Part shown: positions 8,712 to 9,403 of the stretch, piece after piece
How positions within the stretch are numbered: position 1 is the stretch's first letter
Layout of the letters: each line of letters begins with the position of its first letter
NCBI RefSeq assembly: GCF_003790525.1
Contig: NZ_CP033635.1
Source: Escherichia coli
GTDB taxonomy: Bacteria > Pseudomonadota > Gammaproteobacteria > Enterobacterales > Enterobacteriaceae
Length of the DNA stretch: 64,000 nucleotides
Reading direction: 5' to 3' (one strand)
The notes under the pieces: generated by a model
What the model was told of the DNA's origin: nothing
Database searches by the model: none
Seen by the model: the letters and a program-made list of their open reading frames with translations, nothing else
Translations under genes and position numbers: made by a program

Positions 8712-8740
8712 TTGACTTCATATTGTGATGTCATACTATT
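8712..8740 (+). promoter_or_regulatory. Putative sigma-70 promoter of the hicAB-like operon (TTGACT-N16-TACTAT) embedded in GATGTCATA direct repeats and an ACTTCA/TGAAGT inverted repeat
   Basis: -35 and -10 hexamers read directly; the overlapping repeats are candidate antitoxin operator sites. Confidence 0.45.
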
Positions 8741-8816
8741 GATGTCATAAAGTGAAGTCATAAGGACATGCCATGAGAACCCTGGTACAGGCTTTACGGA
8801 AGAAACAAAAAATACA

Positions 8817-9047
8817 TTGGATCAAATATTTAAATCTCCTGTTCCTCAAGGGATTAAGTGGTCTGATATAGAGTCACTGGTTAAAGCATTAGGCGGAGAA
8901 ATTAAGGAAGGAAGAGGTTCGCGTTGTAAGTTCATACTAAATATGAGCGTTGCGTGTTTCCATCGGCCTCATCCGTCGCCAGATACCGATAAAGGCGCTG
9001 TAGAAAGCGTGCGTGACTGGTTACTAAGTATAGGGGTAAAACCATGA
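8817..9047 (+). CDS. HicA-family toxin (mRNA interferase-like); the N-terminus appears displaced by a frameshift in an A6 run
   Basis: 76-aa ORF with a GS...FHRPHP...VR.WL pattern typical of HicA/YcfA toxins. An RBS-preceded ATG at 8773 is in another frame and would supply the N-terminal helix after a 1-nt change at 8807-8812. Confidence 0.65.
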   Translation: MDQIFKSPVPQGIKWSDIESLVKALGGEIKEGRGSRCKFILNMSVACFHRPHPSPDTDKGAVESVRDWLLSIGVKP

Positions 9048-9403
9048 TCAAACTGAAGACGCCAAACTCTATGGAGATTGCCGGGCAACCTGCTGTTATC
9101 ACTTACGTGCCAGAACTGAATGCATTTCGTGGCAAATTCCTGGGCTTGTCAGGTTATTGTGATTTTGTCTCTGACAGCATTCAGGGGCTGCAAAAAGAAG
9201 GGGAGCTTTCCCTGCGAGAGTATCTTGAGGATTGTAAAGCTGCGGGTATTGAGCCGTATGCGCGTACAGAAAAGATTAAGACCTTTACATTACGCTATCC
9301 AGAATCGCTGAGTGAACGCCTTAATAATGCGGCTGCGCAGCAACAAGTCTCTGTAAATACTTATATTATTGAAACGCTAAATGAGCGTTTGAATCATTTA
9401 TAA
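9044..9403 (+). CDS. HicB-family antitoxin with C-terminal ribbon-helix-helix DNA-binding domain
   Basis: 119 aa; overlaps the toxin stop (ATGA); C-terminal RHH-like segment (TLRYPESLSERLNNAA...NTYIIETL). Confidence 0.7.
   Translation: MIKLKTPNSMEIAGQPAVITYVPELNAFRGKFLGLSGYCDFVSDSIQGLQKEGELSLREYLEDCKAAGIEPYARTEKIKTFTLRYPESLSERLNNAAAQQQVSVNTYIIETLNERLNHL

Follow-up and report, generated by a model that had tools for sequence, protein, structure and literature searches.

A clonal one-nucleotide deletion in the toxin gene of a chromosomal hicAB module of Escherichia coli that keeps its hicB antitoxin gene intact

Background

In the classification of Gerdes 2024, the class 4 hicAB modules are those in which hicA lies upstream and HicB carries a C-terminal RHH domain (PMC10865869). 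Modules of this class, for example Burkholderia pseudomallei HicAB (PDB 6G26) and Streptococcus pneumoniae HicBA (5YRZ), are among the closest known systems to the operon described here. His24 is the catalytic residue of B. pseudomallei HicA, and the H24A variant is non-toxic (PMC3969222). The decay of chromosomal toxin-antitoxin (TA) modules through inactivation of the toxin is established in E. coli (review PMC7167474). The ccdO157 module, as summarised in that review, occupies a conserved chromosomal site in part of the species and has undergone independent inactivations (Mine et al. 2009, in PMC7167474). In P2-like prophages, a hotspot between gpA and gpQ has been defined by Rousset et al. 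2022 (PMC9122126).

The operon that we analysed in the window (the whole 64-kb stretch of E. coli DNA under study) is a class 4 hicAB module in the above scheme (PMC10865869). Unlike the characterised class 4 toxins, its toxin in the intact form has 91 residues with an extra conserved N-terminal helix at residues 10–19; the subfamily has an invariant G-S-R where the characterised toxins have G-S-H (PMC3969222), and the gene in the window is frameshifted. Like ccdO157 as described in the review, the module is found at a conserved chromosomal site in part of the species and has been inactivated independently, although it belongs to a different TA family. A related pair in a P2-like prophage (L012/L013), located between gpA and the portal gene, encodes a 75%-identical HicA and a 118-aa HicB and shares the same TGACTTCA boxes. 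Unlike this prophage cargo, the copy in the window is chromosomal and its toxin is apparently dead. Homologues are also present in temperate phages of Burkholderia (phage ST79) and Ralstonia.

The hicAB of E. coli K-12 (yncN/ydcQ; PDB 6HPB) occupies another locus, and its HicB, with an HTH domain in place of the RHH, falls in class 3 (PMC10865869). The hicAB studied in the O157:H7 strain MC2 (PMC5854682) appears, judged from the citations in that work, to be of the K-12 type. A phmmer comparison of the window proteins with K-12 hicAB gave no significant similarity. The K-12 HicA is a protein of 58 aa with the canonical histidine.

Results and discussion

Genomic context of the operon

The hicAB operon is a chromosomal copy outside any prophage, located in the E. 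coli SMS-3-5 lineage between yhhJ and the class II aldolase gene of a sugar-utilisation island. The order of the genes is yhiI-rbbA-yhhJ, then hicA (as a pseudogene) and hicB, followed by a seven-gene aldolase/HPr/FGGY-kinase/PTS/GntR island and nikR-nikEDCBA. Over positions 4000–16000 the window shows ~100% identity with 24 complete genomes, one of which is E. coli SMS-3-5 (NC_010498.1). On identical sequence (SMS-3-5, CS5L), RefSeq labels the first gene of the operon 'type II toxin-antitoxin system HicA family toxin', pseudo and 'frameshifted', and the gene after it is an intact 'HicB family antitoxin' (WP_000593555.1). The operon is followed on the plus strand by a predicted intrinsic terminator (9406–9446), consisting of a hairpin at 9406–9440 and then a U-run; the hairpin folds at -21 kcal/mol, with z = -5.7 versus shuffled sequences. 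No known RNA was found in the hicAB region with Rfam.

The toxin gene is split at a run of six A

The hicA pseudogene extends over positions 8773–9047 of the plus strand, i.e., 275 nt compared to the 276 nt (91 aa) of intact alleles. Its ATG at 8773 is preceded by AAGGA, with an anti-Shine-Dalgarno duplex of -5.9 kcal/mol at a spacing of 5 nt, and opens a first reading frame (8773–8871) of 32 aa (MRTLVQALRKKQKIHW...), composed of 13 native codons, 19 out-of-frame codons and a stop. The HicA-like domain continues from 8817 in another frame, as the earlier note on this DNA had described: the ORF list contains a second plus-strand frame, 8817–9047, which encodes 76 aa when read from a TTG equivalent to Leu16 and is offset by -1 from the frame of ATG 8773 (8817-8773 = 44, i.e., 2 mod 3). 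The uninterrupted frame from the native start is broken at an A6 tract, located at 8807–8812 (codons 13–14) inside the predicted N-terminal helix, which splits the gene into the 32-aa and 76-aa ORFs. Alignments with intact alleles, such as the one coding for the 91-aa O157:H7 protein WP_001259385.1, reveal A7 at this place, so that the A6 tract is the site of a 1-nt deletion from an ancestral A7. The earlier note had proposed that a single added A would restore a 91-aa HicA-family protein; indeed, the insertion yields a product of exactly the length found in intact A7 alleles, 97% identical to the main 91-aa protein cluster of E. coli.

We consider it likely, with a probability of roughly 85%, that the locus is a chromosomal type II hicAB module whose toxin was killed by a genuine 1-nt deletion, A7 to A6, leaving HicB as an autoregulated orphan antitoxin. 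The deletion at codons 13–14 would inactivate hicA in that ribosomes starting at ATG 8773 would go out of frame and stop at 8871, with the result that little or no HicA would be made. The 3' frame (8817–9047) is probably without a functional start codon. It retains the complete Pfam HicA domain and carries no secondary lesions, however, such that some low-level production of toxin could occur, and this counts against the explanation that we favour.

The A6 allele marks a single clone

The distribution of the lesion was assessed with a query of 50 nt centred on the A-run, which matched 1,280 of the 5,426 complete genomes; the A6 allele was told apart from the others by the bands of identity and the record spans obtained with the A6 query. 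The exact A6 50-mer was present in 25 of the 1,280 matching genomes. Of these 25, 24 are the same genomes that match positions 4000–16000 of the window at ~100% over a span of 12,001 nt, the sole exception in span being CS5L, whose match is interrupted by an IS1. In the lineage that comes next, at 99.6% identity over 12 kb, the span is 12,002 nt, and the member checked, TCM3e1, has A7. A 91-aa HicA is annotated both in O157:H7 and in this nearest sister lineage, each with A7. The 24 genomes of the A6 clone originate from humans, chickens, dogs, a pangolin and river water; all 24 carry A6, and revertants number zero. The pattern points to a single origin of the lesion, in the ancestor of the SMS-3-5 clone, for which A6 serves as a real clonal marker. 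The 25th genome, O157 strain AR-0429, has A6 on the O157 haplotype, through a slip of its own or through an error in this one genome.

The earlier note had left the choice between a homopolymer slip that inactivated the toxin and an error of assembly, and the genome comparison decides in favour of the former. Homopolymers are error-prone on some platforms, and both the single A6 genome of O157 (AR-0429) and a single lesion in strain PCP07014 could be errors. In the clone, however, A6 recurs in all 24 genomes, which derive from different laboratories, hosts and years, among them SMS-3-5, whose genome was finished by Sanger sequencing in 2008. In addition, AP028310.1, an independently deposited complete genome found through the protein index, is identical to the window over the 831 bp compared. 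The presence of A6 in 24 of 24 independently assembled genomes, together with A7 in the sister lineage, excludes an assembly artefact, and a gene that is intact in the organism and merely misread has next to no probability.

Equally hard to credit is a phase-variable (contingency) function of the tract, by which the toxin would be switched on and off at high frequency. The lesion does sit in a homopolymer, and the GAAGAAACAAAAAAAT segment has in some other strains lost 2 nt, which makes A9, or 3 nt, which makes A8. Against such a switch, A6 is confined to 25 of the 1,280 genomes, comprising one singleton and a single clone; the lack of revertants in the clone argues that there is no phase variation, and frequent changes of tract length within clones were not seen. 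A7 is also shorter than the tracts typical of contingency loci. The SMS-3-5 clone, being 100% identical over 12 kb, is too young to reveal relaxed selection on a dead hicA.

Possible sources of residual toxin

A truncated but active HicA of 76 aa, translated from TTG 8817 and forming a pair that still works with HicB, was another option raised in the earlier note; we regard it as improbable. In its favour, the frame 8817–9047 is open and holds the whole Pfam HicA domain (residues 30–80 of the 91-aa form), the sequence upstream of the TTG is A-rich, and PGAP still calls an equivalent 76-aa 'toxin', from a CTG codon, in the 788 genomes with the IAI1-type allele. That the codon equivalent to TTG 8817 is CTG in so many genomes speaks in turn against its use as a start. 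TTG is itself a weak start, served by a single, weak Shine-Dalgarno match located 15 nt upstream (-3.5 kcal/mol, versus -5.9 for hicA and -6.5 for hicB, both at 5 nt), and the site is crossed by the ribosomes that translate the 32-codon ORF. The truncation would also remove the basic stretch R9–K13, T15 and half of the helix 10–19.

The homologues argue in the same direction. In the Enterobacterales, HicA homologues are nearly all 91 aa long and cover 100% of the repaired query; such 91-aa proteins occur in Citrobacter, Klebsiella, Enterobacter, Serratia, Dickeya, Xenorhabdus, Pectobacterium and others. More distant homologues have 84 aa and start MKRK...TL. Residues T15, L16, F20, P23 and W30 are near-invariant, and none of the homologues compared begins at the position equivalent to 8817. 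Because the homologues are 91 aa long and the N-terminal helix is conserved, the start of the family does not lie at TTG 8817.

It is more doubtful still that the A6 allele is leaky, with transcriptional or -1 ribosomal slippage yielding a little full-length toxin in a stochastic manner. Since the HicA frame lies at -1 to that of ATG 8773, slippage of tRNA-Lys, or one A inserted during transcription, would regenerate the wild-type protein. A one-base backslip on CAA-AAA-AUA would restore the wild-type ...QKNT..., and the proposed site, A-AAA-A (tRNA-Lys), lies directly before the AUA codon, a rare codon in E. coli. Efficient slippage, however, requires about 8–9 or more A, and the tract has just six; no stable structure was found downstream (z = +0.27). 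The frameshifted form is limited to one clone plus singletons, the single uninterrupted 91-aa ORF being the norm in the family, and other lineages have lost hicA by plain stop codons. A programmed frameshift or slippage site is not what these features describe.

HicA family, fold and catalytic motif

The assignment of the toxin to the HicA family, made in the earlier note from the letters of the sequence, is borne out by profile searches and by the predicted fold. The repaired protein matches Pfam PF07927 (HicA_toxin) over residues 30–80 with an E-value of 3.7e-9, and PHROG 8887, a phage-family profile described as 'toxin', over residues 11–91 with an E-value of 2e-26. Its AlphaFold2 model (pLDDT 91.6) contains the N-terminal helix that had also been suggested from the sequence, predicted at residues 10–19 with a pLDDT of ~97 and conserved among the homologues, followed by an alpha-beta-beta-beta-alpha core of the dsRBD-like type, as would be expected of the HicA family. 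NCBIfam and PADLOC gave no match to HicA or HicB. Nothing significant came from searching the sequences of the PDB with each protein or with a HicA profile, no relative of this subfamily with a solved structure being detectable by sequence, and a comparison at the level of the fold was therefore needed.

Examination of the putative catalytic residues reveals a departure from the known toxins. The subfamily lacks the histidine of the G-S-H motif in the beta1-beta2 loop and carries instead G49-S50-R51, a property of the subfamily and not of this allele: among 67 homologues no variation is seen at G49 or R51, and conservation at S50 is at least 90%. In a weak alignment (E 0.6) with PDB 9svk, R51 falls opposite the H of 'GSH'. 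Two other histidines are conserved, H67 invariantly and H64 nearly so, and one of them could replace the canonical catalytic residue. Since GSR takes the place of the catalytic GSH, RNase toxin activity is an assumption even for the intact HicA. Our literature search found no study of this hicAB locus or of the HicA subfamily, including its toxicity, RNase or anti-phage activity. This widespread, uncharacterised 91-aa GSR subfamily is the sole point here that is possibly of interest to TA specialists.

The antitoxin gene

Downstream of the lesion, hicB (9044–9403, plus strand) encodes an intact putative antitoxin and autorepressor of 119 aa. Its start codon and the stop of hicA share the sequence ATGA, in agreement with the overlap and the intact RHH-bearing antitoxin reported in the earlier note, and the gene is served by a ribosome-binding site of its own, with an anti-Shine-Dalgarno duplex of -6.5 kcal/mol at a spacing of 5 nt. 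The protein matches Pfam PF05534 with an E-value of 3.5e-15, and its C-terminus shows weaker matches to Arc/CopG RHH profiles; the assignment to HicB is completed by a predicted fold of the HicB type, with a partial RNase-H-like domain in the N-terminal part and an RHH domain in the C-terminal part.

HicB is intact in every allele type examined. One and the same HicB sequence occurs in the window, O157, IAI1, FDAARGOS_497 and TCM3e1, a set that includes three toxin-null types, and in PCP07014, where the toxin is frameshifted, HicB is intact with one substitution. The hicB gene of the window differs from that of O157, and likewise from that of IAI1, by six synonymous and no nonsynonymous substitutions. 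The protein databases also hold ~10 odd-length clusters of HicB in E. coli, many of which are probably artefacts of gene calling or contig ends; in view of these aberrant products we claim no quantified asymmetry between toxin and antitoxin.

Promoter and operator-like boxes

A consensus scan predicts a sigma-70-like promoter at 8712–8739 of the plus strand, 12 nt after the yhhJ stop, with TTGACT (8712–8717) and TACTAT (8734–8739) separated by a 16-nt spacer; this is the promoter noted previously. Its consensus score of 9/12 is unexceptional when taken alone (three such sites were found versus 2.3 expected), and the element would, from its position and sequence, drive the operon.

The same region (8713–8762) contains four operator-like boxes of the form TGAnnTCATA, detected by pattern search and by repeat and inverted-repeat detection at 8713–8722, 8726–8735, 8740–8749 and 8753–8762, with a spacing of 13/14/13 nt. 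The GATGTCATA direct repeats and the ACTTCA/TGAAGT inverted repeat of the earlier note exist in the sequence and are better described as these four boxes. The TGAnnTCA cores have palindromic TGA/TCA ends, and boxes 1 and 4 are mutual reverse complements (TGACTTCA / TGAAGTCA). The -35 hexamer falls inside box 1, the -10 hexamer is flanked by boxes 2 and 3, and box 4 abuts the Shine-Dalgarno sequence. The pattern TGAnnTCATA occurs four times in the 64-kb window, each time at the hicAB promoter; of the 18 matches to the looser pattern TGANNTCA in the 64 kb, four fall within these 48 bp.

Four other contexts have the same octamers (TGACTTCA / TGAAGTCA) upstream of a hicA homologue: a syntenic locus of Citrobacter, flanked by yhhJ and nikR; a locus of Serratia flanked by murJ and argS; the P2-like prophage, where the flanking genes are gpA and the portal gene; and Leminorella. 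The octamers lie around -60/-47 and -33/-20 relative to the ATG, and most of them come in pairs with a spacing of 13 nt. Three of the four contexts have (T)TGACTTCA at -57 to -61 from the ATG, roughly the distance that it has in the window, and Serratia has TTGATCTCA at this place. The DNA flanking the boxes is otherwise unrelated among the contexts, and the conservation of the boxes amid unrelated DNA, in effect a phylogenetic footprint, lends support to an operator role, which had been suggested from the look of the repeats. Palindromic boxes overlapping the promoter of the operon are in all seen in five genomic contexts.

By analogy with known RHH-type HicB proteins (PMC10865869), HicB may bind the TGAnnTCA boxes. 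In the mechanism that we propose, hicB has stayed intact with its own Shine-Dalgarno sequence and start codon, and HicB dimers would occupy the four boxes over the -35, the -10 and the leader, repressing their own promoter. The locus would in this manner have become an autoregulated orphan antitoxin.

Toxin-null alleles across E. coli

The hicAB locus is present in about 2,070 of the 5,426 complete E. coli genomes, and the toxin-null lesions that we counted amount to at least 896 of about 2,073 carriers (43%). The most frequent is the IAI1 type (788 genomes), in which a stop at codon 2 (ATG-TAA) is combined with a deletion of 14 bp by which one operator box and the -10 are lost. This is followed by Q26* in 82 genomes, the A6 allele in 25 and, in one genome (PCP07014), a 2-nt CA deletion that creates A9. 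A Q4* allele, sometimes accompanied by a 3-nt deletion, was encountered only in draft assemblies and has no exact match among the complete genomes. The protein databases also contain in-frame deletions, C-terminal frameshifts and insertion junctions of hicA.

A separate remark concerns the PCP07014 lesion, for which A5 was considered and rejected, the alignment having revealed the 2-nt CA deletion that makes the A9 run.

Several independent toxin lesions within the species, with retention of the antitoxin, are what is expected of a decaying TA module, and A6 would be one among many such events, in the usual course of decay of chromosomal TA modules. As such, the case is one of routine TA decay that was already known, the HicA pseudogene being flagged as frameshifted in RefSeq and toxin-first decay being textbook matter. 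The additions made here are modest, namely a toxin-null share of at least about 43% of the carriers and a four-box candidate operator conserved across genera and in the copy of the P2-like prophage.

It is conceivable, though we think it rather unlikely, that recurrent selection and not neutral decay underlies the pattern, the lineages dropping HicA and keeping HicB as an orphan immunity factor with an anti-addiction or anti-defence role. If so, HicB would be under purifying selection and would neutralise the HicA of incoming P2-like prophages and other mobile elements, and it would repress incoming promoters through the shared TGACTTCA boxes.

Finally, a comparison of the IAI1 allele with that of the window gives 85% identity across the intergenic region and the 5' part of hicA and 100% identity in the 3' part of the gene, a switch in identity that indicates a recombination breakpoint inside hicA.

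Allelic variation of hicA

The codon at position 4 of hicA (window 8782-8784) varies between alleles: the window has CTG, O157 has AAG, and CAG is shared by TCM3e1, FDAARGOS_497 and IAI1. In several draft E. coli assemblies (among L017-L023) the same codon is a TAG stop; two of these TAG alleles carry an additional 3-nt deletion, by which the A tract becomes A8. A CA deletion in the hicA gene of PCP07014 leads to A9. Codon 4 is thus hypervariable, and the GAAGAAACAAAAAAAT segment of hicA looks like a small mutational hotspot. The nearest sister lineage, represented by TCM3e1 (L008 649-924), contains an 'intact' A7 allele with an F20V substitution; across the family, conservation of this residue is 90% or higher. 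The same substitution recurs in the database protein P0080, in an O157-type background.

The counterpart of window 8773-9047 in E. coli IAI1 (L003 1611-1886) represents another type of allele, which is found in 788 complete genomes and contains a stop in codon 2 (ATG TAA); it has also lost one operator box and the -10 hexamer through a deletion of 14 bp. For this allele PGAP calls a 76-aa 'HicA family toxin' (WP_042014162.1) from a CTG start codon; the gene is probably a pseudogene that lacks the corresponding flag. Comparison of IAI1 (L003) with window positions 8701-9043 shows only ~85% identity in the intergenic region and the 5' part of hicA, whereas the last 118 bp of hicA are 100% identical, and the flanking hicB and yhhJ genes are 98.3% and 97.9% identical, respectively. 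Such mosaic divergence implies a recombination breakpoint within hicA, near position 8925.

Putative catalytic residues and relatives of the 91-aa HicA subfamily

Canonical HicA toxins contain a catalytic G-S-H motif; unlike these, the 91-aa subfamily exhibits G-S-R at the corresponding position (codons 49-51 of the repaired gene, with one A added; window 8917-8925). Both G49 and R51 are invariant throughout the subfamily, as is H67, and H64 is nearly so (codons 64-67; window 8962-8973). Apparently, no member of the subfamily has been characterised or structurally solved, so that both the catalytic mechanism and even the toxicity of the subfamily are putative.

A related hicAB pair occurs in a P2-like prophage (L012 2501-3129 and L013 255-883), flanked by gpA and the portal gene, an interval which is a known anti-phage defence hotspot. 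The prophage HicA is 75% identical to that of the window, its HicB consists of 118 aa, and TGACTTCA boxes are common to both hicAB loci. Further homologues were found in Burkholderia phage ST79 and in Ralstonia phages. Several NCBI and UniRef records of HicA homologues (P0053, P0059, P0061 and P0079) bear the name 'hexulose-6-phosphate synthase', which is a propagated misannotation.

hicB and the surroundings of the locus

In CS5L (L002 2251-2983), a member of the SMS-3-5 clone, an IS1 element has inserted at the 3' end of hicB, leaving a 357-nt CDS (WP_350337374.1) and an altered antitoxin C-terminus. Between hicB and nikR, the window contains a seven-gene island on the minus strand (9453 to ~15060), which codes for a class II aldolase, an HPr-like protein, an FGGY kinase, PTS IIC, IIB and IIA components and a GntR regulator. 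Since hicB directly adjoins nikR in IAI1 and FDAARGOS_497, the yhhJ-nikR interval is a variable insertion site. Elsewhere, the RyhB small RNA (51195-51259, plus strand; Rfam RF00057, 83 bits) is the sole Rfam match that reaches the gathering threshold within the 64-kb window.
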